This document shows, piece by piece, positions 9,696-28,755 of a stretch of DNA of 52,530 nucleotides; the stretch's first letter is position 1, and every line of letters starts with the position of its first letter. The notes under the pieces were generated by a model. It did not search any database. It saw nothing but the letters and a program-made list of their open reading frames with translations, and was not told the origin of the DNA. This DNA is from a virus (lineage: Duplodnaviria; Caudoviricetes): the IMG/VR virus record IMGVR_UViG_3300032325_000423, positions 1 through 52,530 of that record; one strand, written 5' to 3'. A program made the position numbers and the translations under genes.

Positions 9696-9777
9696 CGTAA
9701 GTCGTTGGTATCAAATAACTTAGATTAAAATCGGCCGCCCCGGCTTGTCGTAAGTCCTTTGGCAGTAAGGGTTTACG
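9696..9777. repeat. 82-bp element A, copy 1
   Basis: CGTAAGTCGTT-N7-AATAACTTAGA, 24-bp linker, CGTAAGTCCTT-N7-AAGGGTTTACG. Confidence 0.9.
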
Positions 9778-9794
9778 TCAAGTCTCTTAGGGGT

Positions 9795-9830
9795 AAAAAA
9801 GAACCGCCACCCATTGCTGAGTGGCGGCTC
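9795..9830 (-). terminator. rho-independent terminator
   Basis: Minus strand GAGCCGCCACTCA-GCAA-TGGGTGGCGGTTC-TTTTTT downstream of DUF932 gene. Confidence 0.8.
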
Positions 9831-9854
9831 CCGTTCAACCCCCACGCCGAGGGA

Positions 9855-10805
9855 TTAGAGTGCCTGAGCGAACTGCATGGCCTTTTCCAAAGCCTTGGCG
9901 TTGTCGTTCGCGTTCAGTCCGAACCACAGGCTGTCGAGCCGATTATCTTCGGTGCGACCCTTGTTGTAATTCAGATACTCGTTGTAGCCGTTGTACGCGG
10001 CCCACCACGTTCCGCGAACACCCGTTGCACTCTGCTTCGGGCCTTCGACCAGAGTCAGAATCTCGTCCATGATGTTTCTGGTACGAGTCTTGATCTGATC
10101 ATCCGGTGTACCGTCGATGTCGAGCATCACCTTGACATAGCGACGAACGTCGGCCTGATTGAAGTTCTTCGACGCGAGGAACTTGAACTGTTCCGCAGTC
10201 GCCTCAAACTCCATATTAATGTTGTCCATAATGTCTCGCACGTTTTCCAGATTGGTCTTGCTGGAGCGTGTGTGACGAATACGAATCAACTTGGAACCAC
10301 TGCCCTTGCTATGAGCCATCGCCATAGTGTTGGCACACACAACGCGGATCGGCGTATAGCCAACCCGGATAGCGGTCGTGCCATCGTGCGAGTTGCTGAG
10401 AAGAATAAACTTCCCAACCTCGTCACCCTTCACGATCTCGCTATTGTCGCGGTTCAGTTGGGCCAGAACCCAAACCTTCTGACCGCTGTGGAGCGAACCG
10501 GCAGTATGCAACGCACACTCGCCAGCGTCCAGAAACGGCTGGAACCAATCGAACGCTTCGCTGTTTTGCAGCGGAGTGTATCGCGGGCCGACAACGCCCA
10601 GAATACTATCGTCGGTCTTGCGATAGGTCGCACGGGCCGGAACAGGCTGGCCGTCCACCGTGACCAGATCCTTCAAGCCAACTTCCCAATCCAGACCGGC
10701 AGCGGTCATCGCTTCCGAAACCGTGGGAGCTTCGTCAAGCTGGTTCCCAAGGCCGTGCCACGGGGTCGCACCAACAAACATCATCTGTTCAACTGCATGA
10801 GCCAT
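9855..10805 (-). CDS. DUF932 / TIGR03299-type phage/plasmid protein
   Basis: N-terminus MAHAVEQMMFVGATPWHGLG, LLSNSHDGT and TPIRVVCANT motifs; AAAGGGA RBS; start reassigned downstream of promoter. Confidence 0.88.
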   Translation of the reverse strand: MAHAVEQMMFVGATPWHGLGNQLDEAPTVSEAMTAAGLDWEVGLKDLVTVDGQPVPARATYRKTDDSILGVVGPRYTPLQNSEAFDWFQPFLDAGECALHTAGSLHSGQKVWVLAQLNRDNSEIVKGDEVGKFILLSNSHDGTTAIRVGYTPIRVVCANTMAMAHSKGSGSKLIRIRHTRSSKTNLENVRDIMDNINMEFEATAEQFKFLASKNFNQADVRRYVKVMLDIDGTPDDQIKTRTRNIMDEILTLVEGPKQSATGVRGTWWAAYNGYNEYLNYNKGRTEDNRLDSLWFGLNANDNAKALEKAMQFAQAL

Positions 10806-10849
10806 AATCATCCCTTTCGTGTTGCTGTTCAATCGTTCTTCGTTCACTG

Positions 10850-10878
10850 ATTCTACACTATATTATCGGCAGTGTCAA
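10850..10878 (-). promoter_or_regulatory. sigma70-type early promoter with CCGATA spacer motif
   Basis: TTGACA-ctgccgataatatagtg-TAGAAT. Confidence 0.8.
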
Positions 10879-10906
10879 GCGAAAACTTTGGAAAAATTCC
10901 GCAGCT

Positions 10907-10988
10907 CGTAAGTTGTTGCCACATAAGGACTTACGGCTCGCGGGGGCGCCCGGCTTTGCCCTAAGTCTTTGGCTGGTAAGGGTTTAGG
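10907..10988. repeat. 82-bp element A, copy 2
   Basis: CGTAAGTTGTT-N7-AAGGACTTACG, 24-bp GC linker, CCTAAGTCTTT-N7-AAGGGTTTAGG. Confidence 0.9.
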
Positions 10989-11467
10989 ATGATCGTCCCG
11001 AACTGCTTCTCGAAAAGTTTAGAATCTGTAGAAGCATTGAAAGCACACTCTTCACCAAGGTAGAAGTATGCTCCGATACACTTTGCTCTTGGAGTATCAT
11101 CAGAAATACTACCAATAATATGTTTAAGAGTATCTCCAGAACAAATCAAATCATCCACAATAACATATCGTGATGGAGAAACTCCCTCAAGAAAGAATTC
11201 GCTGTATCGTTTTTCAAATTTACGAACAACAATAATATTCTTATTTAGAATCTCTGCAATCTGTGGCACTACCATCAAACCACTAACACCACAACAAGCA
11301 ATACTATCAAAATCTTGTTCAATCTTACGCAGAGAACAGATAGCTTTGATAATCACACTATTTCTATACTTGTGATTTAATACTCTGCTAGTGTGAGCAG
11401 CCCCTTGAATGATCTTACCATCTGGGGTGCGTCGGAAATCATCAAGCTCTTGCTGGAAAGCGTTCAT
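10961..11467 (-). CDS. type I phosphoribosyltransferase-like protein
   Basis: PRPP-binding motif YVIVDDLICSGDT; stop lies inside repeat A2. Confidence 0.8.
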   Translation of the reverse strand: MNAFQQELDDFRRTPDGKIIQGAAHTSRVLNHKYRNSVIIKAICSLRKIEQDFDSIACCGVSGLMVVPQIAEILNKNIIVVRKFEKRYSEFFLEGVSPSRYVIVDDLICSGDTLKHIIGSISDDTPRAKCIGAYFYLGEECAFNASTDSKLFEKQFGTIILNPYQPKT

Positions 11468-11469
11468 AA

Positions 11470-11551
11470 AGTGTGTGGTTGGATTTGAACCAACGGCCCG
11501 TTACAAGAAAGGATAATATATTAGGGTCTAGTCCCACCTAGAAGCACACAC
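11470..11551 (-). ncRNA. tRNA-like RNA with aberrant anticodon arm
   Basis: Acceptor GTGTGTG/CACACAC, T-arm GTTGG-TTCAAAT-CCAAC, stem TCTAG/CTAGA, but 24-nt loop in place of anticodon loop. Confidence 0.6.
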
Positions 11552-11556
11552 AAGGA

Positions 11557-11730
11557 CTATTCGTTTTCTTCTTCAAGACTTGAATAGTAATTCTTACCAT
11601 AAGACGGAACCTCATCATCCTCTTCTGCATCTTGCATCCAAGGCTCTTCGTCCAGACCAAGATCCTCGGTATTTTCTACCAATTCATCATAGTCATAATC
11701 GTATCCGTCATAATGATCTTCATATCTCAT
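11557..11730 (-). CDS. small acidic protein
   Basis: Manual translation MRYEDHYDGYDYDYDELVENTEDLGLDEEPW...; GGGAG RBS, promoter at 11755-11782. Confidence 0.65.
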   Translation of the reverse strand: MRYEDHYDGYDYDYDELVENTEDLGLDEEPWMQDAEEDDEVPSYGKNYYSSLEEENE

Positions 11731-11778
11731 ATTTTTACTCCCTTTCTTACCTCTATTCTACACCAATCGGCCAAGTTG

Positions 11779-12192
11779 TCAAGACCCCAAAACTTTGTTT
11801 ATCTCAAAATCACAAGCCATACGAACATTGGCGGTCTGGTTATTTTTTGCCTTAGTTTTTCTTAGGTTTAACCTATTCTTATTTTTCATAAGAACGTCAG
11901 AACCTACTAAATATACCTTACCATCTTCTAGATCATATATCCCAAAATAATCAAACATTTCAGGTTGATAAGCAAAAGAATAATTAGGACCAGTCTTCTT
12001 TAAATGAAGATGGATGCAATTATCTGTTGGAGTTATAGCCTTTGCTTGTATTCTTAGAATCTTACCATCTTTTTCAGCTAGAATATCTATCTTAGATATA
12101 TCCCCTTCTTCCGTAAAGACAGAGTATCCTAACTTAGTTAACTCTAGACCAACCGCGAATTGGCCTATATTGCCTTTTCTTTTGCTGTGCAT
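11779..12192 (-). CDS. PD-(D/E)XK endonuclease (group I intron-associated/homing type)
   Basis: G.IGQ..V...L...GY.V....D...D.L......RIQAK motif. Confidence 0.8.
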   Translation of the reverse strand: MHSKRKGNIGQFAVGLELTKLGYSVFTEEGDISKIDILAEKDGKILRIQAKAITPTDNCIHLHLKKTGPNYSFAYQPEMFDYFGIYDLEDGKVYLVGSDVLMKNKNRLNLRKTKAKNNQTANVRMACDFEINKVLGS

Positions 12193-12244
12193 ATCGAACT
12201 CCTTGAGTAGTAGATTAGTAGTATACTACTCTATCATACACCAG

Positions 12245-12317
12245 TGCGCCCCCTGGGAATCGAACCCAGAACCCCAAAATTAAAAGTTTCGTGCTCTGCC
12301 AATTGAGCTAGAGGCGC
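12245..12317 (-). tRNA. tRNA-Lys(TTT)
   Basis: Cloverleaf, loop CT-TTT-AA. Confidence 0.9.
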
Positions 12318-12323
12318 ATCAAC

Positions 12324-12503
12324 CTATTCGGCGTTTACAGTAATTTCCTCATAAGAATAACTTTGAATATTCTCGGTTGTAAAATCATACAACTTATCAA
12401 ATACATCAGCCCAATCAAAATCCTCTTGCATGGATAGCTGAATGTCGGCCAGAGATTTACCATCCTCGGTCAGAATATCATAGATGCGCAGGTTCTTCAT
12501 CAT
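12324..12503 (-). CDS. hypothetical acidic protein
   Basis: ORF track; start MMKNL after AAGGA; promoter 12523-12551. Confidence 0.6.
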   Translation of the reverse strand: MMKNLRIYDILTEDGKSLADIQLSMQEDFDWADVFDKLYDFTTENIQSYSYEEITVNAE

Positions 12504-12573
12504 TTTCCTTTCTTGTTCCAACAGTCTACCATACCAATATCGTCCTGTCAAGAGCCAAAACTTGAAGATTTGT

Positions 12574-12618
12574 GCTGACTATCGCCAAGACTACCAAATC
12601 CGCAGGATTAGCAGAAAC
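12574..12618. repeat. 45-bp repeat family B, copy 6
   Basis: GCTGACTA-N12-CCAAATCCG-N5-TTAGCAGAAAC. Confidence 0.8.
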
Positions 12619-12621
12619 AAA

Positions 12622-12693
12622 TGACCCCACGGAGAATCGAACTCCGATCTCCACCGTGAAAGGGTGGCGTACTAGCCGTTATACAATGGGGCC
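12622..12693 (-). tRNA. tRNA-Glu(TTC)
   Basis: Cloverleaf, CCACC-CT-TTC-AC-GGTGG. Confidence 0.92.
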
Positions 12694-12696
12694 AAG

Positions 12697-12767
12697 CAAA
12701 GGAGGAGGGAATCGAACCCCCATCTACGGTTTTGGAGACCGTCATTCTACCGTTGAACTACTCCAAT
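12697..12767 (-). tRNA. tRNA-Trp(CCA), mismatched acceptor stem
   Basis: ACGGT-CT-CCA-AA-ACCGT; acceptor ATTGGAG/CTCCTTT has two U-U pairs. Confidence 0.75.
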
Positions 12768-12848
12768 GTCTCGCAACTCAAACATCAGCCTCCGATTAGC
12801 AATCATACACTCATTATCGGCAGTTGTCAAGAACAAACTTTAGAAAAT

Positions 12849-12930
12849 TCTAAGTCGTTATGCAGCAAGCACTTACGTCGAACGCGGCCCGCCGGATTTG
12901 TTCTAAGTCTTTATATACCAACAACTTAGT
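12849..12930. repeat. 82-bp element A, copy 3
   Basis: 29+24+29 architecture, inside tRNA cluster. Confidence 0.9.
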
Positions 12931-13011
12931 GGTAGATGCTGGATTCGAACCAGCGAAGGCAATGCCAGCAGATTTACAGTCTGCCCTCGTTGTCCACTTG
13001 AGTAATCTACC
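12930..13011 (-). tRNA. tRNA-Tyr(GTA)
   Basis: GCAGA-CT-GTA-AA-TCTGC, long variable arm. Confidence 0.92.
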
Positions 13012-13014
13012 GAG

Positions 13015-13101
13015 CGGAAGAAGTAGGATTCGAACCCACGGAAGTTTTTACGCTTCTTCTGATTAGTAATCAGATGCATTAGACCACTCTGCCATTCTTC
13101 C
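13015..13101 (-). tRNA. tRNA-Ser(ACT)
   Basis: GGAAGAA acceptor, G discriminator, long variable arm, TCTGA-TT-ACT-AA-TCAGA. Confidence 0.85.
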
Positions 13102-13105
13102 TAAG

Positions 13106-13177
13106 CTGTCCGACTAGGATTCGAACCTAGAACCAAGCGGTTAACAGCCGCCTACTCTACCGTTGAGCTATCGGACA
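13106..13177 (-). tRNA. tRNA-Asn(GTT)
   Basis: GGCGG-CT-GTT-AA-CCGCT. Confidence 0.92.
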
Positions 13178-13187
13178 ATATCTACAA

Positions 13188-13258
13188 TTCCGGGGCTAGG
13201 ATTCGAACCCAGACAAAGAGAACCAAAATCTCTGGTGCTACCGTTACACTACCCCGGA
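13188..13258 (-). tRNA. tRNA-Gln(TTG)
   Basis: AGAGA-TT-TTG-GT-TCTCT. Confidence 0.9.
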
Positions 13259-13259
13259 G

Positions 13260-13331
13260 AGCCGACGAAAGGATTTGAACCTTCAACCTATTGATTACAA
13301 ATCAATTGCACTACCGTTGTGCTACATCGGC
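13260..13331 (-). tRNA. tRNA-Thr(TGT)
   Basis: ATTGA-TT-TGT-AA-TCAAT. Confidence 0.92.
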
Positions 13332-13381
13332 AATCAAAGTATTATAGTCAATAGTCTCCGTTGTCGCAAGCCCTGCGATTT

Positions 13382-13741
13382 TCAGCGGATCGGGTTCGCT
13401 GACGCTTGGGGCGATTGTCCATAACGGTGTGACGATGTTCCTTGTGACCCGTAGGAACCTGCCACTGCGGTCGCACCTTGATTTTGATATGGTTGCGGCG
13501 TGGTCTCATATCGTCGTTGTTGTGGAGCGTAATCATGCCATTGTCCATTTTCGTGTAGGTAAAAAACTTTGTCAACATTAGGATCGTAAGCCATCAGACA
13601 GTATTGTACCGGATAAACCACCTTTGTCAAGGCCTGTTTCTGAGGCATGGGAGGGAATTTTATATCACCTTTTTGATAATCTTTGATTCCCGTATACGCC
13701 AGACCCAAAATCGTAATCACAATCCCAACCCACTGGATCAT
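13382..13741 (-). CDS. hypothetical membrane-anchored protein
   Basis: ORF track; start MIQWVGIV with TM helix. Confidence 0.6.
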   Translation of the reverse strand: MIQWVGIVITILGLAYTGIKDYQKGDIKFPPMPQKQALTKVVYPVQYCLMAYDPNVDKVFYLHENGQWHDYAPQQRRYETTPQPYQNQGATAVAGSYGSQGTSSHRYGQSPQASANPIR

Positions 13742-13831
13742 TCTCTCACCCCTTGTTGATTCTCGTCTCGTTCTCATATCTATATTATCGACCAATCCAG
13801 CGTAGAAACTTTAGAAGATTTTTGAATTTGC

Positions 13832-13913
13832 TCTAAAGTGTTGTGGGCTAAGGACTTACGTCAAAGCCGGGCGCCCCCGCTCGCCCTAAGTGCTTACGCA
13901 GTAAGGGTTTGCG
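13832..13913. repeat. 82-bp element A, copy 4
   Basis: 29+24+29 architecture. Confidence 0.9.
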
Positions 13914-13920
13914 GTTAGCC

Positions 13921-14151
13921 TCATTCCAAAGTCCATCCGGCATCTTTTAGAATATGGCTAGTGTGTAATACGCAAGTTAATCCATCAGCATTTGTATAGT
14001 CTTTATAACTACGCTCATCAAGATAGATATACTCATCTAGCGTATCATTTTCATTTGTTTCCCAGATAGCATCCATCGCAGCGTCCCTTGGACATTTGTT
14101 ACAAGAATAAATTAGTTCTAGAGTTCCAGATTTTACATAATATTTTGCCAT
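13921..14151 (-). CDS. hypothetical protein
   Basis: Start MAKYYVKSG after GGGGA RBS. Confidence 0.65.
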   Translation of the reverse strand: MAKYYVKSGTLELIYSCNKCPRDAAMDAIWETNENDTLDEYIYLDERSYKDYTNADGLTCVLHTSHILKDAGWTLE

Positions 14152-14155
14152 ATGA

Positions 14156-14725
14156 TTATCCCCTGTCTCTAAATTGTTTGCAGTGAGCACAATTACATTC
14201 TCCATATCCACCATCATAAGCATCGTAATCGTAATCAAACTTACCATAAATATCTTCATCCCAATCACTAAAACTCTCAACCCCAAGGTCGATCACAACC
14301 GGAACCCATGATCCTTTGCGTCGAACATAACCAAAATTACCTTTGTGAGAGTCATTATACTCTAAGCCATTTTCACCCAAATCATAAACTAGCTCAGAGA
14401 TAGTAGTCCCGTTCTTACATTCGCTCTGAAAACATTCACCATCACAATCTTCGTCATGGCACTCTGGCATAGTACGAGCCACTTCGGTCAAATAACCATG
14501 AGCAGTCAACTCACCATCATACCTACGAATCATACCAACATCCCCATATACCATAGGGGCCAAATCAAACTGTGCTAAATGAGACTGAACACGATGGGCA
14601 AACTTAGCCTCTTGCTCATTCTCAAACTCTTTAAAACCCACCCGCTTACGGTTAATCTTTTTGTCTTTGATAATATAGAAAGCATTTTTACTTCCTGCAT
14701 CATCATACAATCCAACGTAGCTCAT
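14156..14725 (-). CDS. protein-kinase-like fold protein
   Basis: Lys in VGFKEF, catalytic-loop-like YNDSHKGNFG, DFG-like VIDLG. Confidence 0.6.
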   Translation of the reverse strand: MSYVGLYDDAGSKNAFYIIKDKKINRKRVGFKEFENEQEAKFAHRVQSHLAQFDLAPMVYGDVGMIRRYDGELTAHGYLTEVARTMPECHDEDCDGECFQSECKNGTTISELVYDLGENGLEYNDSHKGNFGYVRRKGSWVPVVIDLGVESFSDWDEDIYGKFDYDYDAYDGGYGECNCAHCKQFRDRG

Positions 14726-14736
14726 TTTTATTCCTT

Positions 14737-15441
14737 TCAATGGGCTGGAAACAAGACATTAGCCAAACCACGAACACACAAGTCACATGATATACTATCT
14801 TTAGTGCCGGTGCAAGTGATTTCCGAACGACCACGACGGATTTCGGGACATACCACAAACTTTGTAGCATTGAGAACCACTAGCTTCGGCAGTGCTTGTC
14901 GCCATGCTTCGGCTTTTGCTTTGCTCTTAGGACGCTTCGGAGCAATCTTCATATCGCTGTCACACCATGCGAACAGCTTGAAACCCTGTGCCAGTGCTTC
15001 GCCCATATCGTTATCATCATGCACACTAGCGTACACATTCATATACTTTTCCAGACTCACAAGCCGAGAATCGTAGATATGAGTATAAAACCACATATCG
15101 GGCAACGTATCACCATCGGCAAGAATACTCTCACAAGCCCACGTTACATTAGCAACATAGTCTAGGTCAAGCTCACCATTGAGAAACCAGTCTCCACGCT
15201 CATGCCAACGGATAGACTTCTCACGACGCTTTGCTTCCAGAATCATAGCACGGATTTTATTCTTTTCCGTTATGACATTAGCAAAACCGGCAGTACGGGC
15301 ATTTTTATACTGATTTTCAGTAGCTTCGGCATAGCAGCCGTTTCCAAGGTAGTCGCAATCGGGCGGGCAAGTATCGCCAACTGGACGCGAAACCACAATG
15401 CAACCCTTACCCAACTTATCATTACCGTCAGCAGTTTTCAT
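14737..15441 (-). CDS. phage gp88-like Cys-rich protein
   Basis: TCPPDC..CYA, IRWHERGDW, WFYTH, CP...C..C pattern. Confidence 0.65.
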   Translation of the reverse strand: MKTADGNDKLGKGCIVVSRPVGDTCPPDCDYLGNGCYAEATENQYKNARTAGFANVITEKNKIRAMILEAKRREKSIRWHERGDWFLNGELDLDYVANVTWACESILADGDTLPDMWFYTHIYDSRLVSLEKYMNVYASVHDDNDMGEALAQGFKLFAWCDSDMKIAPKRPKSKAKAEAWRQALPKLVVLNATKFVVCPEIRRGRSEITCTGTKDSISCDLCVRGLANVLFPAH

Positions 15442-15462
15442 GTTCTTCTCCTGTGTCTACCG

Positions 15463-15491
15463 ATTCTACACTATAGTATCGGCATAGTCAA
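15463..15491 (-). promoter_or_regulatory. sigma70-type early promoter
   Basis: TTGACT-N17 (contains CCGATA)-TAGAAT. Confidence 0.75.
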
Positions 15492-15519
15492 GCGAAAAAC
15501 TTCAAAAAATTATTCTTGA

Positions 15520-15601
15520 TGCAAGTTGTTGTGGCATAAGGACTTACGACGACCCCGGCCCGCCGCATTTGCCCTAAGTCCTTTGTTTTCAAGCAGTTAC
15601 G
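15520..15601. repeat. 82-bp element A, copy 5
   Basis: 29+24+29 architecture. Confidence 0.9.
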
Positions 15602-15646
15602 GTGTATCTAAGGATAGAATCCGAAGTTTTATCCACTGGAGGCTAT

Positions 15647-16006
15647 ATGCAAACCTGTCCTAAATGTAATCAAACTAAAACAGCTAAACATTTTTACACT
15701 CGTCCAGCAAGAAATGGTAAAAAATTTTCCTACTGTAAAGATTGCAATAAGCAAAATGTCATCGATAGAAAACGACAGTTTAAACTGAAATGCCTAGAGT
15801 ATAAAGGTTCTCAATGTTCTAAATGCGGATATGATAAATGTCCGGCAGCACTAGAATTTCATCATATCAATCCATCCACTAAAGACTTTATTCCAAGTCA
15901 CTATAGTAATACTTCTTGGGATAAGAATAAAGATAAGGTAATGAAAGAGTTAGATAAATGTATTGTTCTTTGTGCGAATTGTCACAGAGAAGAACATTTC
16001 AAATAA
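15647..16006 (+). CDS. HNH endonuclease with N-terminal Zn finger
   Basis: CPKC..CKDC, CSKCGY..ALEFHH..KCIVLCANCHREEH; GGAGG RBS; only convincing plus-strand gene in the cassette region. Confidence 0.88.
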   Translation: MQTCPKCNQTKTAKHFYTRPARNGKKFSYCKDCNKQNVIDRKRQFKLKCLEYKGSQCSKCGYDKCPAALEFHHINPSTKDFIPSHYSNTSWDKNKDKVMKELDKCIVLCANCHREEHFK

Positions 16007-16080
16007 TACTCGCGGAGGGACTCGAACCCCCAACCTAACGGGTAGAAACCGTTGGCTCTATCCAATTGAGCTACGCGAGC
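16007..16080 (-). tRNA. tRNA-Arg(TCT)
   Basis: AACGG-TT-TCT-AC-CCGTT. Confidence 0.92.
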
Positions 16081-16170
16081 ATAGACTTATTATAGTCAGT
16101 CCTAGTCAATACTGCAAGCCCCAACGGCGTCCCGTGGAGGCTCGCAGCCATTATGACTCCTTACAGTCGA

Positions 16171-16428
16171 TCACGCAACCGCTTCGGCAGTTTCCTTTTC
16201 AACCTTACCATCATGGGCATCACCAGCCTGTTCGGCTGTCACACCCGTAACCCTCGCACGCCACACCTTATAGCCTTGCTCACTAAACGCCTTGACCTCA
16301 CCAGCCTTAACATTCGCATGAACATCGCCAGGAAGGCTACCGCTCAGGCACTCACGAATCGAATCAACCACCGAGTCACGATCAAGCTCATCAGCCACAA
16401 CGTCAACAGCAAAAGTAAACTTCTTCAT
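16171..16428 (-). CDS. hypothetical protein
   Basis: GGAGA RBS; promoter 16475-16503. Confidence 0.7.
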   Translation of the reverse strand: MKKFTFAVDVVADELDRDSVVDSIRECLSGSLPGDVHANVKAGEVKAFSEQGYKVWRARVTGVTAEQAGDAHDGKVEKETAEAVA

Positions 16429-16631
16429 CTTATCTTCTCCAAAATTGTTATAGTTTCCAAATCGTTCTAGTACCAGTATACGCTACTGTTACCCACTTGT
16501 CAAGTCCGTCGTGATGGTTTTTCTTGTTGGCATCGTCGCGGGGTCTTGACTTGTGATACTCTCATTCTACAGTATAGTATCGTCATTGTCAAGGGGGAAC
16601 TTGAGTGAGCCTCAAAGATTTTTGATTTTGT

Positions 16632-16713
16632 CCTAAGTTGTTTGCTGATAAGGACTTACGTCAAATTTTGCCGCCCCGCCTCGCCCTAAGTTCTTTAGGG
16701 ACAAGGCTTTAGG
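16632..16713. repeat. 82-bp element A, copy 6
   Basis: 29+24+29; upstream gene's stop codon directly abuts (16714). Confidence 0.9.
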
Positions 16714-17498: not shown

Positions 17499-17522
17499 TT
17501 TCTTTTCTCTTGCTTAAATGAT

Positions 17523-18001: not shown

Positions 18002-18083
18002 CGTAAAGTCTTTAGCAGCAAGTACTTACGACGAAACCGGCCGGCCCGCCTTGAGCTAAGTTCTTTAGCAGCAAGGACTTATG
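18002..18083. repeat. 82-bp element A, copy 7
   Basis: 29+24+29; both N7 cores TAGCAGC; stop codon abuts (18084). Confidence 0.9.
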
Positions 18084-19734: not shown

Positions 19735-19816
19735 CGTAACCCTATGATACACAAGCACTTACGTTAAAGTCGGCCGGCCCGCCTTACCCTAAGTTCTTTA
19801 AGGATAAGGACTTACG
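19735..19816. repeat. 82-bp element A, copy 8
   Basis: 29+24+29 architecture. Confidence 0.9.
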
Positions 19817-20804: not shown

Positions 20805-20886
20805 CGTAAAGTGTTGGAACATAAAGACTTACGACGAAGCGGGCCGGCCGACCTCGCCCTAAGTCCTTTGGTGTCAAAGGGTTAGG
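20805..20886. repeat. 82-bp element A, copy 9
   Basis: 29+24+29 architecture. Confidence 0.9.
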
Positions 20887-21753: not shown

Positions 21754-21835
21754 CGTAAAGTGTTGCAGTATAAGGACTTACAACGAACGAGGCCGCCCGC
21801 GTCGGCCCTAAGTGCTTGAACACAAAGGGGTTACG
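21754..21835. repeat. 82-bp element A, copy 10
   Basis: 29+24+29 architecture. Confidence 0.9.
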
Positions 21836-21850
21836 ACGAGAGATTATTTT

Positions 21851-22081
21851 TCACTCAAAATCAACAAAAATGATTTGAGCATAGCCACGGGGCTTAACGG
21901 TATATCCGTCACTATAGTCATAGGTGTCAGCCTTGACAGCAGTCATACCGGCCAGAGCCTTGGCCTTACGAACAACGCTGCGCTGAGAAGCATTCTTCTT
22001 AGGGATGAACTCATATCGTTTCACCCAACCATAGTTAGCTTCACCACCAAAAGTATCCGTATGGGTAACAACGCACTTCAT
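21851..22081 (-). CDS. conserved phage hypothetical protein
   Basis: TDTFGGEANYGWVKR. Confidence 0.7.
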   Translation of the reverse strand: MKCVVTHTDTFGGEANYGWVKRYEFIPKKNASQRSVVRKAKALAGMTAVKADTYDYSDGYTVKPRGYAQIIFVDFE

Positions 22082-22627
22082 TTAACAAGTTCCTTTGCTT
22101 TCATGGTTTCAAGATACAACTGTTCCAACATCTTCACACGACTCACTGCACGATCAGTCTCACGATTCATGAGTATAACAGCTTTCTCATGTGCTGTCAA
22201 CTCTTTCTTTTTGGTTTTCATTTCTTTTCTTCTTCTTTCTTCAACGGGCCACGATAGCCCCTGAACCTTCTCAGCTCACCATAGTAGTTACGACTAGCAG
22301 AACCATAACGAGTCTTTCGACGCTTGGTGGTTCGACATGGTTCAATTGGTTTGATATCTTCGTTTTCCATTTTTTATACTCCTAACCAAACAACTCATAT
22401 TCTTCATCGGTCAATGCTACCTCATCGGGACGATAGCAGTTATTGCCGTACAGATCACGATTCTTAGGGCGCTTTTCCCATTCATCCATGAATCGGTTAT
22501 ACTCTTCGAGACGCTTCTCTTCTTCGCTTTTCATCATTCACTCTCTTTCTCTACTCTATTATCGACAAGTATAGCATAGAAACTTTAGTTGTCAAGCAGA
22601 AAATTTTAGAAAAAGAAAAGATTTTTT

Positions 22628-22643
22628 TGGCACGTCATTTGCT
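22628..22643 (+). promoter_or_regulatory. sigma54 (-24/-12) consensus
   Basis: TGGCACG-TCAT-TTGCT. Confidence 0.7.
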
Positions 22644-22649
22644 ATTAGC

Positions 22650-22731
22650 CATAAGTGCTTACTACTAAAGGAGTTACGTCAAAAGCGGCCCGCCCCGTTT
22701 GCCCTAAGTGCTTACACACAAAGGGCTTAGG
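22650..22731. repeat. 82-bp element A, copy 11
   Basis: 29+24+29 architecture. Confidence 0.9.
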
Positions 22732-22739
22732 GCGAGTGC

Positions 22740-23138
22740 TTAGAATTTTCCTCCAAAATCTGGACTAATCCCGAGTTGCTGCTGAACATCCTCATCGTCC
22801 AGAACATCTTGGTCGATCATAAAATCCATATCATCAAAGAACATTTCGATTTCTGGCTGTCCATCATGGGCCATAATAGCAGCAAAATCATAGATCATAA
22901 AGTAAGCCGTAGCTTGCACCCATGATTCTACAAGTCCCGAATGTAACTCAATAGTATCTCTGTTGAGATAAACGTACTCTATTGCAGAACACTTGGTACT
23001 ATCATTCATTTCATCCCAGACAGGAATCTCTTGATTGTACTTATTCAGTTCTTCGTCCAAAACACCATCTTCACGCCATTGTACATAATTTTCATATGTA
23101 GCTTCGATCATGCCTGTTGCAATCTTTCGATACTGCAT
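22740..23138 (-). CDS. acidic hypothetical protein
   Basis: ORF track; AAGGA RBS. Confidence 0.7.
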   Translation of the reverse strand: MQYRKIATGMIEATYENYVQWREDGVLDEELNKYNQEIPVWDEMNDSTKCSAIEYVYLNRDTIELHSGLVESWVQATAYFMIYDFAAIMAHDGQPEIEMFFDDMDFMIDQDVLDDEDVQQQLGISPDFGGKF

Positions 23139-23154
23139 TATTTTTTCCTTTTAA

Positions 23155-23430
23155 TTAGTCGTCATACGGACCATCTTCATTATAGTCTACAAATCCGACA
23201 GCCTCATCGGCGTGGAAGTCTTCTATTCCATCGTCACCATAGTAGCCATAGTCCTCGTCGGTTCCCCATCCTGCGGAAGCCAACGCAGATTCAGCATCAC
23301 CATCCATACTATCATTAAACGAATCATCAGAATCATTCTCCAGGTCATCATCTCCAGACCAATAATCATTAGTACGATCATCAGCGTCGATACCATAAAA
23401 ATCTTCAAGATCGTCATATTCGTAGCTCAT
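23155..23430 (-). CDS. extremely acidic protein
   Basis: D/E-rich, SMDGDAESALASAGWGTDEDYG core; GAGGGA RBS. Confidence 0.7.
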   Translation of the reverse strand: MSYEYDDLEDFYGIDADDRTNDYWSGDDDLENDSDDSFNDSMDGDAESALASAGWGTDEDYGYYGDDGIEDFHADEAVGFVDYNEDGPYDD

Positions 23431-23496
23431 AGTCAATCCCTCACGATGGTGGTGATGTAAAACAGGCCAACGTATCCGACAACAAACGCAATCGCA

Positions 23497-23664
23497 CTAA
23501 GCATGATCATACTCCGGGGGAACGAAATCGTCAATATCAATCCCGACTACTTCGGCATAGTCGTAAAAATCGGTCTGGATGCTAGGATCGTCAATCGGCT
23601 CCACGATGTTCAGTTCGGCCATCTCAGCAAGAATCCGGTTCACTGCGTCAAAATCGTTCAGCAT
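23497..23664 (-). CDS. small acidic protein
   Basis: Start MLNDF after AAGGA. Confidence 0.6.
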   Translation of the reverse strand: MLNDFDAVNRILAEMAELNIVEPIDDPSIQTDFYDYAEVVGIDIDDFVPPEYDHA

Positions 23665-23701
23665 GATTCTGTTCCTTGTGGTTTCCGTTCGTGATGTTGC
23701 G

Positions 23702-23730
23702 ATTATACTCTTATTATCGGCTAGTGTCAA
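23702..23730 (-). promoter_or_regulatory. perfect sigma70 consensus promoter
   Basis: TTGACA-ctagccgataataagag-TATAAT. Confidence 0.85.
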
Positions 23731-23792
23731 GCAGAAACTTGGAAAATTCCAGAATATAATTTCGTGCCAAAGATGAAAAATCTTTTAGTTGA

Positions 23793-23874
23793 CGTAAAGT
23801 GTTGGCACATAAAGACTTACGCTTCGCGGGGGCGGCCGGGCTGGTCGTAAGTCCTTACTGGTGAAGGAGATACG
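23793..23874. repeat. 82-bp element A, copy 12
   Basis: 29+24+29 architecture. Confidence 0.9.
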
Positions 23875-24056
23875 TCAAGCCACACCCTAGAATGAAACAC
23901 ACCCCTAATAGAACATAATCACTGATTTTCATCATTTTCCTCCATATACATGATATTTGACATACTAGCATACAGAATAATACCAGCAATATACCCAAAA
24001 GCCACACTGATAAAATCAAACTGATACATCCCTGTATCTCCATTTTGTTTAAGTGA

Positions 24057-24290
24057 TCAATCCCCGTATCCTACCCAGAAATCATCACCCTTCTCACCCT
24101 TCATAAGAGTATAACCCCGGCTCCTCATGGCCTCATACTCATTTATCCTCTGCCAAACTTCTCCCACAATAGAGAGAAAGTAGACAAACCCCAAAACAAA
24201 AAGCATAAGACCCATCCAAGCCCACACCAGAATAAAATCACCCATGTTCAAGCCTCCGGTTGGGTAGAGATATTGATCAACTTCTCGCAC
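24057..24290 (-). CDS. small membrane protein (start uncertain)
   Basis: ORF track, TM segment. Confidence 0.55.
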   Translation of the reverse strand: MREVDQYLYPTGGLNMGDFILVWAWMGLMLFVLGFVYFLSIVGEVWQRINEYEAMRSRGYTLMKGEKGDDFWVGYGD

Positions 24291-24451
24291 TGCTCAAGAT
24301 AGCACGAACGATACTCAGTATGTCCGATCTTCACGACCATCATCATACCCTTGGGCTTCTCTAAAACCCTACGAACTTCACCACGATAATCCTCACCCTT
24401 ATAGGTGAACTCAACCCAATCATACCGCTCCGGCAACACAATATTGCTCAT
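24248..24451 (-). CDS. hypothetical protein
   Basis: Start MSNIV after GAGGA. Confidence 0.6.
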   Translation of the reverse strand: MSNIVLPERYDWVEFTYKGEDYRGEVRRVLEKPKGMMMVVKIGHTEYRSCYLEQCEKLINISTQPEA

Positions 24452-24587
24452 CTTTTCCTCTTGGTTACTGGTCATCTTCTCTATACCTATTATCGACATT
24501 CTACCCTGCAAAACTTTAATTGTCAACCTTACAAAACCCACAGGTTCCACCGACTAGTCTGACTAGGCCCCTCTCGGCCCAGTAGGG

Positions 24588-24821
24588 TTAGCTGAGACTA
24601 ACCGCAGTAGGGTTCGACCGATAATATTTTGCCCACAATTCATCCATCACGAACTGGACAATACGATCATGAGAACCACGGCAAACGTAGTATCCCATGT
24701 GGATGTCGAACAGAGCAAACGATCCATCCTCTTTCGGATGAAACGTGAACCCACACTTGTAGGCATAACCATTGATGCTACGCTTGACGGTCGAAACTTT
24801 TGGAGGCTTTCTCATTTTCAT
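24588..24821 (-). CDS. hypothetical protein
   Basis: Start MKMRK downstream of promoter. Confidence 0.65.
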   Translation of the reverse strand: MKMRKPPKVSTVKRSINGYAYKCGFTFHPKEDGSFALFDIHMGYYVCRGSHDRIVQFVMDELWAKYYRSNPTAVSLS

Positions 24822-24843
24822 TTTCTCTCTTTCTTGTTCTACC

Positions 24844-24872
24844 ATTATACATCTATTATCGTCAAATGTCAA
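24844..24872 (-). promoter_or_regulatory. perfect sigma70 consensus promoter
   Basis: TTGACA-tttgacgataatagatg-TATAAT. Confidence 0.85.
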
Positions 24873-24927
24873 TAGGGTAGTCCAGAAAAAATTTCCTTAC
24901 ATTTCCGTAAGGTTCGTAGAGAAAGTT

Positions 24928-24943
24928 TGGCACAAGATTTGCT
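24928..24943 (+). promoter_or_regulatory. sigma54 (-24/-12) consensus
   Basis: TGGCACA-AGAT-TTGCT. Confidence 0.65.
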
Positions 24944-24988
24944 AGTGATGCAAAGATACGCAGCAATGCCTACAGAATAATCATTGAA

Positions 24989-25070
24989 CGTAAGTCTTTA
25001 CCACATAAGCACTTACGACTCGCCGGGGCGGCCCGCCTCGCTCTAAGTCCTTTAGCAGCAAGGCTTTGCG
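24989..25070. repeat. 82-bp element A, copy 13
   Basis: 29+24+29 architecture. Confidence 0.9.
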
Positions 25071-25207
25071 TCAAGTTTTGCGTTTTCTGTATATTCGTTC
25101 AGCACCCACCCAAACGGGTAGGTAGAGCTTAGGATATAGCTGTACATATGAACTCTTCACCCATCGTTCAGTCTCTAGTGTAACGTCGTACACTAGTGTA
25201 GTGTCGT

Positions 25208-25588
25208 TCATTCCTCCCCCTTGAAGCTGAACGGACTGATTTCTTCACCGCAAGCAGCAATTGCGGCATACTGCTTGGTCAGTTCCTCGACACGCTCACG
25301 ACTTCCCGGCTTGCCAACCGGAACGATCATGGTATCCTCACCCCCCACATAGCGGGGATCAGCCTTTTCCTTACGAACCTTCCCCAGATTCTTCAGTGCG
25401 GTACGGTTGAACTTGAGAACCTTTTCACTCACAACGTAACGCTTATGGTCATCCACACCGTAGACGTAATCGACATCATCCACAACCTTATCATCAGGAA
25501 TTTCTACGATCATAGGAATCGCGATACCCTTGAAGATCATACGGGCTTGACGCTTGGCATTTTCGATGATGGGAAACTTGGTTTTCAT
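25208..25588 (-). CDS. hypothetical protein
   Basis: ORF track. Confidence 0.7.
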   Translation of the reverse strand: MKTKFPIIENAKRQARMIFKGIAIPMIVEIPDDKVVDDVDYVYGVDDHKRYVVSEKVLKFNRTALKNLGKVRKEKADPRYVGGEDTMIVPVGKPGSRERVEELTKQYAAIAACGEEISPFSFKGEE

Positions 25589-25655
25589 TGTCTTTTTCTC
25601 TCTTAGGTTCTATCGTTCTCTTGTGCGTGTATTCTATCAATAATTCTTTTGCCTA

Positions 25656-25865
25656 TCAACCCCCACTATGGGTGGGCCGACGAGTCCAAGGATGGCCGTA
25701 GGCATCCGCCGCGGTCGAAAGCTCATGGTCTGCACAGTCATGGAGATTGCCACCTTCGGTACGCACTACCCACACATTTCCCTCATCATAGTGGTAGGAA
25801 ACAATCTTTCCAACAATCTGTTTCTCGAATCCCTTGAGCATCACACTATCACCAATTTCGTACAT
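25656..25865 (-). CDS. small SH3/KOW-like hypothetical protein
   Basis: MYEIGDSVML...GKIV; promoter 25891-25919. Confidence 0.6.
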   Translation of the reverse strand: MYEIGDSVMLKGFEKQIVGKIVSYHYDEGNVWVVRTEGGNLHDCADHELSTAADAYGHPWTRRPTHSGG

Positions 25866-26209
25866 TCTTTTCTCTCTTTCTTGTTCTGCTATTCTACCAA
25901 ACTTTTTCGATGCTGTCAATTGCTTTTCTTTTTGCTCAGATAAGCATGGGACACGATCTGGTCAAACGTATACCACTCGCCTTCGCATCGGCCGGAAAGC
26001 TGAACCTTGATATTCTTTCCGACAATCTGCTGAACATTGCCGTATCCGTCAACCACTTGAACCACATCGCCAACCATAATCTTTTGCATCGTTTTCTCCC
26101 TTACTCTTATATCGACATTATACCATGCTCATCTTGAGTTTTCAAGAGAAATCTAGAAATTTTTGTGTCAAGAGATTTTGACAAAACTTTTCGTCGTTTT
26201 CTTTCTCAT

Positions 26210-26225
26210 TGGCACAGGGTTTGCT
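26210..26225 (+). promoter_or_regulatory. sigma54 (-24/-12) consensus
   Basis: TGGCACA-GGGT-TTGCT. Confidence 0.65.
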
Positions 26226-26232
26226 TGTTCGT

Positions 26233-26314
26233 CGTAAAGTCCTATCGTATAAGCACTTACGTCGAACGGGGCCCGCCCGCCTTGCCCTAAGTGCTTTAGG
26301 GTCAAGGACTTACG
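26233..26314. repeat. 82-bp element A, copy 14
   Basis: 29+24+29 architecture. Confidence 0.9.
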
Positions 26315-26315
26315 G

Positions 26316-26633
26316 TTAGTATACCAGATTCATATCGGCTACTACCACCCCGTCCTCGTACTCTTCCCCACTTTCGAGGTACCACTGCCCCTTGCGTTGA
26401 TACACGCGAACGGGCGAATACTGATTGATTCTATCCTTAGTGGTACTCGTATGCCAACCCCCACTATTGAGGGTAGCACTATTATCTGGATGAATCTTTA
26501 CCACATAGGTACTATGCAGCATGATCCCTACGCTACCATCAGAAAGAATTTCCGCATAGGTATTGTTACCTACCTTGCGAGTATTCTTATTAGTCTTACC
26601 ACGAACCATCTTCACTGCTTCATAGTGTGTCAT
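26316..26633 (-). CDS. conserved phage hypothetical protein
   Basis: LNSGGWHTSTTKDRIN motif. Confidence 0.75.
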   Translation of the reverse strand: MTHYEAVKMVRGKTNKNTRKVGNNTYAEILSDGSVGIMLHSTYVVKIHPDNSATLNSGGWHTSTTKDRINQYSPVRVYQRKGQWYLESGEEYEDGVVVADMNLVY

Positions 26634-26903
26634 GTTCAGCCTTTTTCGTAGAGAGCAATTGTGCAATAGAAGAAACCGGCATAGCCAATCAGAAAAGCAA
26701 TAGCGTTCAAAGCGTCAATCATTATTTCCTCAGTCGTGAAGGATGGATTGAATAGCGTTACCTACCTCATGGGCAGTATACGAAATAAAACCGGCAAAAG
26801 CAATCAGGGCAAACAGTTGAGCGTATTCGATAACAGTAATCATTTTCTTTCTCTCTTTCTCTTTCTCGAATTCTATCAAATTTTTTCTTGTTGTCAACCC
26901 CTC

Positions 26904-27128
26904 TTAGCGGGGGACAGTGATCATTCCGTTGAAGTGCGAAAAGGTCAGCTTGAGAAACCTATTCGGGTACTTCTCGTTGATGTACGCTTGTGCAGAACTT
27001 TTCCGATTATCGGTAGCACCAACGTACTGAACAACCGTACCATCTTGATCGGTTACTTTCCAAACCTTCTTCTGAACGATACGAGGAAGGCCACTGATGA
27101 AACTGTTGACTGAAACTACTTTTTCCAT
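26904..27128 (-). CDS. hypothetical protein
   Basis: Start MEKVV; promoter 27165-27193. Confidence 0.65.
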   Translation of the reverse strand: MEKVVSVNSFISGLPRIVQKKVWKVTDQDGTVVQYVGATDNRKSSAQAYINEKYPNRFLKLTFSHFNGMITVPR

Positions 27129-27257
27129 TTTCTCTTCTCTTTCTTTCTTACTTCTTATATCGACATTATACCCTGTCATACTTGAGATTGCAAGAGAAAT
27201 CTGCCAATTTTATTGTCAAGAAAATTTGACAAAACTTTTCAGTATTTTCTTTGGTAT

Positions 27258-27273
27258 TGGCACGGCTTTTGCT
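27258..27273 (+). promoter_or_regulatory. sigma54 (-24/-12) consensus
   Basis: TGGCACG-GCTT-TTGCT. Confidence 0.7.
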
Positions 27274-27280
27274 AATTCTT

Positions 27281-27362
27281 TGTAAGTCGTTATGGGCTAA
27301 GTACTTACGTCAAGCCTGGGCGCCCCGCCTTGCCCTAAGTGCTTATAGGACAAGGCTTTGCG
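27281..27362. repeat. 82-bp element A, copy 15
   Basis: 29+24+29 architecture. Confidence 0.9.
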
Positions 27363-27364
27363 TA

Positions 27365-27580
27365 TCAAGAGGCGTGAATGAACACTTGTTCACTTCTGAG
27401 TCGGTTATTAATGGTTACGATCCAGTTCTTTCCGCTACCATCTTCCCTCATGATGCCATTGATGATGCCCATATGAGCGTTGCCCTTTGGGTCGAGTACG
27501 CAGTGATACTTGCCAGTTCGCATAGCATCAAAAAGCTTATCAAGGTTGTTCGTCACGATTTTGTAGTTAGTCTTAAACAT
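27365..27580 (-). CDS. hypothetical protein
   Basis: GAGGA RBS; REDGSGKNW. Confidence 0.7.
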   Translation of the reverse strand: MFKTNYKIVTNNLDKLFDAMRTGKYHCVLDPKGNAHMGIINGIMREDGSGKNWIVTINNRLRSEQVFIHAS

Positions 27581-27645
27581 CTTTTCCTCTTAGGTTGATT
27601 CTATTCTATCGTTTTGCTCTTACGTTGTCAATACTGTACGAACTA

Positions 27646-27879
27646 TCAGTTGACCGCAAAATCATCGATAACGTATCCCATATCGTCAATCTCGATCCAA
27701 CCGCCATCGTCCATGAACCCAAGCTCATCATCGATTGCAATCTGGTTGTATCCGCTCGCACGGACATGGTCGAGAAGATCAGCAGCAAAAGCAACACGAC
27801 CAACCAAAGTAGAAAGGCTGGTGTTGTCAAGGAACTCTCTCAACTCAGCCACAGTGTTCAGAACAATCAGGTTTTCCAT
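27646..27879 (-). CDS. acidic hypothetical protein
   Basis: Start MENLIV after AAGGA. Confidence 0.65.
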   Translation of the reverse strand: MENLIVLNTVAELREFLDNTSLSTLVGRVAFAADLLDHVRASGYNQIAIDDELGFMDDGGWIEIDDMGYVIDDFAVN

Positions 27880-28010
27880 TTTCTTATCCTTTTCTTCTTT
27901 CGTTTTCTCTTGTGTTCTTATTATACAGTATTTATCGACCATTGCAAGAGAAATCTTTGGAATTTTTGAAATATAATTTCATGCCAAACACAATATTTTT
28001 TTATATGTGT

Positions 28011-28092
28011 CCTAAGTCTATATTTGGCAAGGAGTTACGTCAAGCCTGGGCCGCCCGCCTATCCCTAAGTCCTTATAGGACAATTACTTAGA
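28011..28092. repeat. 82-bp element A, copy 16
   Basis: 29+24+29 architecture. Confidence 0.9.
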
Positions 28093-28237
28093 GAATCGTA
28101 CCATCACCACGAATACGATACATGATACCGCCGATACTGTACAGGCTTATACCCTCACCCATGTGCTGTACAAACGTAGCAGAATAACCGTGTCGAGCAA
28201 CTAGGCGGCGAATGGTGTTTTGTACTTGAATGGTCAT
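28088..28237 (-). CDS. small hypothetical protein
   Basis: Manual translation MTIQVQNTIRRLVARHGYSATF...; GAGGGA RBS; stop inside repeat A16. Confidence 0.6.
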   Translation of the reverse strand: MTIQVQNTIRRLVARHGYSATFVQHMGEGISLYSIGGIMYRIRGDGTIL

Positions 28238-28300
28238 CGTATTCCCTCTTGTGTTGATTCTATTATAGCTTATCGTCTACGATGCTGTCAATAGATGAAT

Positions 28301-28549
28301 TTAAAATTCCCCATCGTCAAGGCCCGGAATATAATCGGCCTCATCGGCACAGGCTTCACACACCATGTCATAGTAGAGATCGTTTACGTTGTTCAGAATC
28401 TGATTCTCTGAACGAATCCACACACCGTCATGGATCATGTCTTTCGGCTCAATTTTGAACGATGCTCCTGCTTGAATCACTCGCACCCTATGCGAATCCT
28501 TGCCAAAAACCTGTCGAACAGCAGCCATCACCTTGTCGAGCGTAATCAT
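28301..28549 (-). CDS. hypothetical protein
   Basis: Start MITLDK after AAGGA. Confidence 0.65.
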   Translation of the reverse strand: MITLDKVMAAVRQVFGKDSHRVRVIQAGASFKIEPKDMIHDGVWIRSENQILNNVNDLYYDMVCEACADEADYIPGLDDGEF

Positions 28550-28673
28550 TTTCTTTTCCTTTGTCCTATCGTTCTCTTGTGCTTTTATTATACAGTATTT
28601 ATCGACACTTTCAAGAGAAATCTTTGGAATTTTTAAAATATAATCCCGTACCAAACCAAAAAAATCTTTTTGT

Positions 28674-28755
28674 CATAAGTCTTTGGCAGCAAACAACTTA
28701 GGAACAATTTTTGCGACATAATATGACGTAAGTTCTTACCCCACAACAACTTAGG
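28674..28755. repeat. 82-bp element A, copy 17 (AT-rich linker, right border)
   Basis: CATAAGTCTTT-N7-AACAACTTAGG, 24-bp linker, CGTAAGTTCTT-N7-AACAACTTAGG. Confidence 0.85.

Follow-up and report, generated by a model that had tools for sequence, protein, structure and literature searches.

A paired-palindrome element set in helical register with the promoters of a large uncultured phage clade, and its putative role as a protein-docking platform

The IMG/VR virus record IMGVR_UViG_3300032325_000423, a 52.5-kb stretch of DNA (52,530 nucleotides; hereafter the window), comes from an uncultured, lake-type phage and has a completeness rating of 36%. It carries 17 copies of an 82-bp element in which two imperfect palindromes flank a GC-rich linker. 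Judged from its sequence, this cis-element is genuine and under strong constraint, and it is widespread in a large clade of uncultured ~200-kb phages. The distance between the element and the adjacent promoter is quantised with a period of 10.6 bp. The element probably provides a phased docking platform for a protein that would act on early promoters. The phage has no near kin among 50,697 deposited phage records, where a single tRNA match was the closest DNA similarity found, and the best matches of its terminase are Bacillus siphoviruses at ~25% identity.

A preliminary description of this DNA had listed 17 copies, and all of its coordinates were recovered in a repeat search of the window, which returned the copies as overlapping families D1-D3, and in a scan with a position weight matrix (PWM) built from the 17 copies. 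At a cut-off of 15 or more the PWM finds exactly those 17 matches in 52.5 kb, all in the + orientation. A degenerate pattern covering columns 19-73 gives 25 matches in the window, 17 on the + strand and 8 on the - strand with an offset of 9 bp, the latter because the element itself is symmetric; the same pattern gives 0.00 matches in 100 dinucleotide shuffles. Each of the 17 copies prints as 29 + 24 + 29 = 82 bp. They start 663-1942 bp apart, and copies within one genome are only 60-74% alike. All 17 are double elements as described; an additional lone single site lies past the distal end of the array. The GC-rich linker that had been described is found in the array generally, but the degenerate copy 17 is without it. 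The copies and the lone site are as follows.

9696..9777, + strand: copy 1, the distal array end as transcribed; a sigma70-like promoter lies 33 bp leftward
10907..10988, + strand: copy 2; the open reading frame (ORF) at 10961-11467 has its stop within site B
12849..12930, + strand: copy 3; adjoined by the 3' terminus of tRNA-Tyr (12929-13011, minus strand), which ends inside the copy
13832..13913, + strand: copy 4
15520..15601, + strand: copy 5; homology breaks repeatedly at 15583 (column 64), where 33 ends of high-scoring segment pairs (HSPs) fall
16632..16713, + strand: copy 6; its right edge is the stop of ORF 16714-17172
18002..18083, + strand: copy 7; its right edge is the stop of ORF 18084-18338
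19735..19816, + strand: copy 8; its right edge is the stop of ORF 19818-19997
20805..20886, + strand: copy 9
21754..21835, + strand: copy 10
22650..22731, + strand: copy 11; sigma54-like motif at 22628-22643 (+)
23793..23874, + strand: copy 12
24989..25070, + strand: copy 13; sigma54-like motif at 24928-24943 (+)
26233..26314, + strand: copy 14, within the 210-bp duplicate D5; sigma54-like motif at 26210-26225 (+)
27281..27362, + strand: copy 15, within the 210-bp duplicate D5; sigma54-like motif at 27258-27273 (+)
28011..28092, + strand: copy 16
28674..28755, + strand: copy 17, degenerate, with A/T-rich sequence in place of the GC linker; the first copy as transcribed
9432..9460, no strand assigned: lone single palindromic site past the distal array end, scoring 16.2 with a symmetrised single-site PWM (best score in the shuffled window, 3.2)

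The duplicate D5 is a 210-bp direct repeat (75% identity) at 26105-26314 and 27153-27362. It covers the promoter region, the sigma54-type motif and the element, and looks like a duplicated cassette boundary.

The anatomy of the element was defined on multi-copy sets drawn from the IMG/VR matches listed (492 copies for the surroundings, 466 unique copies for the column counts, and 120 sources for the arrays). Column counts over the 466 unique copies show that each site is a 15-7-15 palindrome, TTGA-CGTAAGTNCTT-N7-AAGNACTTACG-TCAA. The 11-7-11 palindrome first proposed thus had the right core geometry but was too short by 4 bp on each side (TTGA...TCAA). Every arm is itself a small palindrome, TAAG-NN-CTTA, and there are four such boxes in an element. 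Conservation is highest in the inner arms (columns 19-29 and 54-64). At the centre of the linker stands GGCCGGCC (columns 38-45), and column 41.5 is the axis of a near two-fold symmetry of the whole element. Orientation is read from small differences in the outer arms and the linker; ~90% of the copies in an array are called alike, and the presence of at least one oppositely called copy in 32 of the 120 sources partly reflects the near symmetry.

The element is rigid in length and uneven in sequence conservation. MAFFT aligned 147 copies (17 from the window and 130 from relatives) in 82 columns without a gap, in agreement with the fixed length described before. Of 760 pairs of independently detected arms, 729 have left and right arms 22 apart, which corresponds to a 7-nt loop, and no pair has a distance of 21 or 23; across the linker the distance was 31 in 506 pairs, 30 in 8, 32 in 3 and 33 in 1. 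The 53-bp distance between the centres of the two sites, which the preliminary description had also noted, was found in 522 of 536 site pairs in loci selected by the pattern. It recurs in 50 of 52 pairs in a set of 80 loci that were fetched by their terminase alone, and so were chosen without using the element. Among orthologous copies (17 groups, 86 sequences), identity is 0.86-0.91 in the arms and 0.86 in the GC core, but only 0.58-0.68 in the loops.

The element pattern occurs in at least 119 stretches in IMG/VR, and a PWM scan of their 945,826 bases found at least 549 copies. The copies of relatives are spaced by a median of 1070 bp (5th-95th percentile 603-2107; 453 intervals). Relatives whose terminases are 73-77% identical to that of the window are 186-233 kb long and rated 100% complete, one of them with terminal repeats. 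This 199,884-bp relative has 15 copies at 57.7-74.3 kb, beside the terminase, and none elsewhere; a single-site scan of it finds sites only at 57.8-75.4 kb. In all five related records analysed (~130-230 kb), the single-site pattern is limited to one block of 17-20 kb containing small ORFan and tRNA units, with 0 matches to a reversed control pattern. Confined to one block, the sites would form a restricted regulon, which counts in favour of a docking platform. The element block is the most GC-rich part of the genome in a complete relative (G005, 58-75 kb; 41-44% vs ~34%), and the window has a similar contrast (42-46% at 10000-28000 vs ~34%).

Full elements are present in 17 of the 80 terminase-anchored loci. 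Another 18 of these loci have at least 7.5 kb of right flank and no full elements; several of them retain single sites. In one such relative (L228; 870-985, 2150-2215 and 2856-2911), one TAAGT palindrome and the GGCCGGCC run are joined with hairpins formed by a C-run and a G-run. Some of these GC hairpins replace one palindrome and others directly abut the -35 hexamer. In bacterial genome contigs, the full-element pattern was found in 13 stretches, all in metagenome bins of inconsistent phyla; these are most likely mis-binned phage contigs.

The genes between 1 and 32 kb of the window are on the minus strand. As transcribed, the stop of a gene or the 3' end of a tRNA is followed by the element, an A/T-rich spacer, a strong TTGACA-N17-TAnAAT promoter and the next gene. 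Besides the ORFs listed with copies 6 to 8, two more, at 26316 and 27365, also stop exactly on the right edge of an element. Around the 492 copies, 235 stops of minus-strand open frames cluster at columns 80-99, and the reverse complement of TTGACA occurs 239 times at 20-80 bp to the left, with nearly none on the other side. Strand calls from the longest ORFs around the copies gave no usable signal because the element holds stop codons in several frames. The sigma70-like promoters of the window include the following.

10850..10878, - strand: TTGACA-17-TAGAAT, 28 bp from copy 2, an example of the promoters that follow elements
9634-9662, 12802-12830, 15463-15491, 16564-16592, 17945-17973, 19667-19695, 20747-20775 and 22568-22595: other sigma70-like promoters
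23702-23730, 24844-24872, 26117-26145, 27165-27193, 27920-27947 and 28587-28614: other sigma70-like promoters, continued

The array contains 70 promoter-like sites, nearly all on the minus strand, compared with 38.4 +/- 5.9 in shuffles. A second conserved signal of two boxes, AAAGTTT-N14/15-CGATAA, is nested around the -35 hexamer and the spacer of the sigma70-like promoters on the minus strand. It was found at 191 of the 492 copies, with 6 occurrences on the control side; examples in the window are at 10850-10900, 12802-12848, 15463-15512 and 20747-20800.

The position of the promoter relative to the element is not free. A clear promoter lies leftward within 160 bp of 307 of the 492 copies. 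In these 307 copies, the distance between column 1 of the element and the -35 hexamer peaks at 18, 28-29, 39-40, 53-55 and 59-62 bp, and the distances in the window include 18, 28, 28, 28, 29, 39 and 39. After the copies were collapsed into 134 families of spacer plus promoter (115 with a distance of 70 bp or less), the best period was 10.6 bp (R 0.53, Rayleigh p ~7e-15). The spacer segments that are added between distance classes are unrelated in sequence to one another; therefore the quantised distances do not come from a duplicated unit.

These observations suggest how the element may function. A sequence-specific protein with two-fold symmetry, encoded by the phage or supplied by the host, would dock on the double-stranded element. 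Its platform would consist of the two 15-7-15 palindromes, with centres 53 bp (five helical turns) apart, flanking the GGCCGGCC core. The element occupies the entire interval from the end of one early unit, either a stop codon or a tRNA 3' end, to the A/T-rich region upstream of the strong sigma70-like promoter that follows. Since the element is kept in helical register with the promoter, the bound complex would most likely act on initiation there from its upstream position, whether by activation, by silencing or as an architectural site, and it may in addition keep neighbouring units insulated from each other.

The position of the element, directly after stop codons and one tRNA 3' end, raises the question of whether it works as RNA, with 3' untranslated hairpins serving as a terminator or attenuator, a 3' end protector or a processing signal, tRNA units included. 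The array has no excess of canonical intrinsic-terminator-like sites (12 vs 13.4 +/- 3.5 in shuffles), so something else may end its transcripts; GC hairpins replace or adjoin one palindrome in some relatives, and the commonest variant of site B gives G.U pairs on the + strand. That strand, however, is antisense to the genes. Pairing is no more frequent than column composition predicts: in the 147 gap-free copies 77.4% of the hairpin cells are paired, compared with 78.0% in shuffles (485 of 500 shuffles reach the observed value), and the covariation score, 0.114, falls short of the mean of the shuffles, 0.124, with 497 of 500 scoring at least as high. In the 466 unique copies, all pairs of columns with high mutual information are neighbours, and where the stems vary, Watson-Crick pairs are as common as expected under independence or rarer, as they are for a long hairpin pairing site A with site B. 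Most copies are unpaired at stem positions 8-22, 9-21 and 12-18. Neither hairpin is followed by a U-run on either strand, and an Rfam E-value scan of 4000-32500 returned only tRNAs and three weak unrelated matches, none at the element. A GC hairpin (GCCGCCAC ... GTGGCGG) followed by a T-run is present on the minus strand at 9800-9835, between the stop of the DUF932 gene and copy 1; therefore this unit has its own terminator-like signal besides the element. The absence of covariation, the fixed lengths of loops and linker despite their drifting loop sequence, and the promoter register, a property of duplex DNA, together speak for a protein site on duplex DNA. Spacing that is fixed while the sequence is free is needed by a dimeric protein bound to the duplex, whereas an RNA loop does not need it. 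We therefore assign an RNA-level role a low probability, and the phased protein-binding sites of the preliminary description gain the 10.6-bp register as further support for what remains a putative function. If a protein does bind, it may be a host factor for which the phage has co-opted the sites, either through bending arms like those of IHF or through an enhancer for a host sigma-54 activator. We regard this special case of the docking platform as improbable to a similar degree. No phage DNA-binding family was detected with the models searched in the related records, and immediate-early promoters are limited to proteins already present in the cell. The IHF consensus is WATCAANNNNTTR. The likeness to IHF sites noted earlier extends to AA-N4-TTR, found in all four arms (in columns 4-12: A 100%, A 100%, T 88%, T 99%, R 91%), but not to the WATC part of the consensus, because the positions matching ATC read C/G/T; no HU/IHF gene was found in the five relatives or the window. 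On the side of sigma-54, the motif TGGCAY-N5-TTGCW is present on the + strand at 54 of the 492 copies and at 4 of the 17 in the window, with its commonest start 23 bp before column 1, and the FlrC flagellar enhancers are typically downstream of the start site (PMC6504787). The motif nevertheless occurs at only ~11% of the elements, also reversed and as palindromic pairs, and the genes are on the opposite strand. A true sigma-54 activator (PF00158) was not found in the five related records, two of which gave only weak generic AAA+ matches, and the only bacterial contigs with the full-element pattern, the bins of inconsistent phyla, identify no host. Beside the window elements, the four sigma54-type motifs (TGGCAC-N5-TTGCT; listed with copies 11, 13, 14 and 15) point into the element, antisense to the genes. 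An extension of the host-factor idea, to which we give a lower probability still, is that an enhancer-like platform couples the early genes of this clade of ~200-kb lake phages to a motility-type regulator of the host, a sigma-54 activator or a flagellar sigma partner, on composite promoters of sigma70, sigma28-like and in some cases sigma54 type. If this were true, early expression would depend on the physiological state of the infected cell, a type of early-gene control in phages of which we found no description.

A different class of explanations places the function of the element in recombination. In one, similar to the PeSL linkers of T4-type phages, the ~90-bp element and its promoter would be a stretch of homology for general recombination, by which co-infecting relatives swap, insert and delete cassettes. 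The layouts are alike (stop, palindromic or GC-rich module, A/T-rich tract, sigma70-like promoter, block of ORFans). When 453 inter-element cassettes cut from 120 sources were clustered, the stretch between conserved neighbours proved variable, with a cassette there in some sources and missing or substituted by another in others: clusters 8 and 0 enclose cluster 3, cluster 11, or cluster 41 then 11, and cluster 3 is followed by cluster 0 or 24. Elements make up 8.1% of the sequence but hold 101 of 649 HSP ends (15.6%), an enrichment of about twofold, and one position, column 64 of copy 5, is a hot spot. The other 548 breakpoints lie outside the elements, however, and the order is constant in all 99 pairs of clusters that two or more arrays share. 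Ungapped identity profiles across junctions gave no usable placement of crossovers. A patch of homology also has no need of column-specific conservation across 466 copies or of fast-drifting loops of fixed length; helical register with a promoter has no role in recombination, and copies that are 60-74% alike within a genome are poor substrates for homologous exchange. We consider it unlikely that this is the primary function, while a secondary role as a PeSL-like recombination linker is possible. The preliminary description had instead suggested shuffling of the integron or shufflon type, in which a recombinase would move cassettes through the elements as integron, shufflon or Xer-like sites. 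An 11-7-11 core resembles the core sites of tyrosine recombinases, and the hot spot in copy 5 is next to the 7-bp core of site B. These cores, however, differ among copies and drift among orthologues, the combination of fixed length and conserved sequence is the opposite of that in attC sites, and no inverted or reordered cassette was seen. The earlier statement that no recombinase is present now extends to the five related records, four of them rated 100% complete, none of which has a match to Phage_integrase (PF00589) or Resolvase (PF00239); the window was not searched directly with either model. Since the order is collinear, breakpoints are only about twofold enriched and these records have neither integrase nor resolvase, we rejected site-specific shuffling, which is close to refuted and has a very small residual probability.

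Several observations weigh against a docking platform that acts on early promoters. With ~35 strong promoter-like sites on the minus strand of the array and 17 elements, about half of these promoters are without one, and 185 of the 492 copies have no promoter that passes the criteria within 160 bp. Distances of 33, 43-44 and 87 bp are out of phase. The Rayleigh statistic is broad (R 0.50-0.53 over 10 to 11 bp), and since the copies are related by descent, clustering removes their dependence only partly. The location directly 3' of genes and tRNAs and the GC hairpins that replace or flank one palindrome in some relatives would fit an RNA or terminator role, and on the + strand combinations of the G.U type far exceed A.C at columns 59-77 and 60-76. 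No candidate for the binding protein was found: models for HU/IHF, HTH_3, TetR_N, ParB_N, integrase and resolvase have 0 matches in the five related records, Pfam and PHROGs scans of the window ORFs gave no candidate, and the 20 array ORFs scanned against PHROGs have no annotated function, being ORFans or members of families of unknown function. Pfam matches among the array ORFs are DUF932, a PD-(D/E)XK nuclease, GP88/DUF7227 and Kyano_Gp96.

A few other features of the window were recorded. Only two regulator-like matches came from the scans of the window ORFs. An ORF at 32353-33003 (+), which heads the plus-strand structural block, is sigma-factor-like, with a Sigma70_r2 match of 21.2 bits, below the cut-off of 24; the other, a weak match to a 'D5-like regulator' PHROG, is at 33000-33818. 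An ORF for an ERCC4-type nuclease (35062-35550, +) lies just before the terminase. The region 19016-19087 (minus) matches the Rfam tRNA model with 36.8 bits (gathering score 29) and has no ARAGORN call; a divergent eleventh tRNA gene may lie there. A second repeat family of ~50 nt (GCTGACTA ... AAATCCG-N3-GGATTAGG ... GACA, + strand), found mainly downstream of the array, might represent a separate class of promoters or a small structured RNA.

5354-5411, 5652-5705, 6627-6684, 7508-7565, 9488-9545, 12566-12623 and 20273-20322, + strand: second repeat family

The control of early genes is known in detail only for a few model phages. The element described here is a sharply defined and highly conserved cis-element with hundreds of natural variants, and it marks the early units of a phage clade. 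From its pattern of conservation and spacing, it has every signature of a protein site that would work in helical register with RNA polymerase. Its 37-bp site offers a handle on finding a new regulator, and the natural spacing variants could be useful for studying activation or silencing at a distance. In addition, two ideas that are often merged for the 'cassette' regions of phages can now be separated: a boundary element selected as a putative binding site, and a turnover of cassettes around it that proceeds without reordering.

The element matches no described family, as had been stated before: Rfam has no match at it and no description was found in the literature, supplements not covered. 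Among published systems, the PeSL cassettes of T4-type phages come closest to it: ~100-bp intergenic modules repeated in a plastic block of small ORFans, with GC stems that were shown to terminate transcription (PMC2839356, PMC4122927). Both systems have a palindromic or GC-rich module right after the upstream stop, then an A/T-rich tract and a strong sigma70-like promoter, here too within the repeated module, and both gain, lose and replace cassettes among relatives. The stable terminating GC stem-loop was not found here, where there is no selection for pairing, no U-run and no excess of terminators, and where GC hairpins occur in some relatives only; the hairpin layout of L228 is closer to PeSL. 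The palindromes of the element are instead A/T-anchored with fixed loop and linker lengths, and they form pairs 53 bp apart with the GGCCGGCC core between them, phased to the promoter with a 10.6-bp period. Support for recombination at the element is weak, and to judge from their terminase (~25% identity to Bacillus siphoviruses) its carriers are not T4-type phages. Since these phages are not T4-type and the terminator stem-loop is lacking, the element is not a PeSL member, although it works partly like one. In a minority of copies it also resembles the FlrC system of Vibrio, in which a sigma-54 enhancer lies downstream of the start site: the -24/-12 motif points into the element, with twin dyads just past the predicted start. 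The differences from that system (PMC6504787) are that ~89% of the elements lack the motif, that the motif would drive transcription antisense to the genes, and that no activator was found in the related records.

The putative protein sites can also be compared with dispersed regulatory arrays. The C1 operators of phage P1 and the KorB sites of plasmid RK2 are dispersed operator arrays, each for one global regulator. Here too, many copies of one putative protein site lie near many promoters of one replicon, as in the regulon of a single protein. Our element differs in that no cognate regulator gene was found, in its rigid pairs with a GC core, and in the location of its sites, upstream of the -35 hexamer at quantised distances and within one block of 17-20 kb. 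REP/BIME (REPIN) elements are pairs of extragenic palindromes scattered over bacterial genomes and associated with a RAYT transposase. Like them, the element consists of imperfect palindrome pairs with a short linker, follows the 3' ends of genes and is conserved as sequence rather than by covariation. Its sites are not dispersed over the genome, however, but lie in one block in all five related records, and their order and positions are orthologous between phages, unlike those expected from recent transposition. A parallel to the helical register is found in class I CRP sites and the Fis sites upstream of rrn P1, which work only at distances that differ by whole helical turns. The distance classes of 18, 28.5, 39.5 and ~60 bp upstream of the -35 hexamer follow the same rule, and such a register is how activator or architectural sites upstream of a promoter behave. 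In sequence the element is unlike the CRP, Fis or IHF consensus, and its putative platform is ~90 bp long, has four half-sites and recurs 15-17 times in a phage genome.

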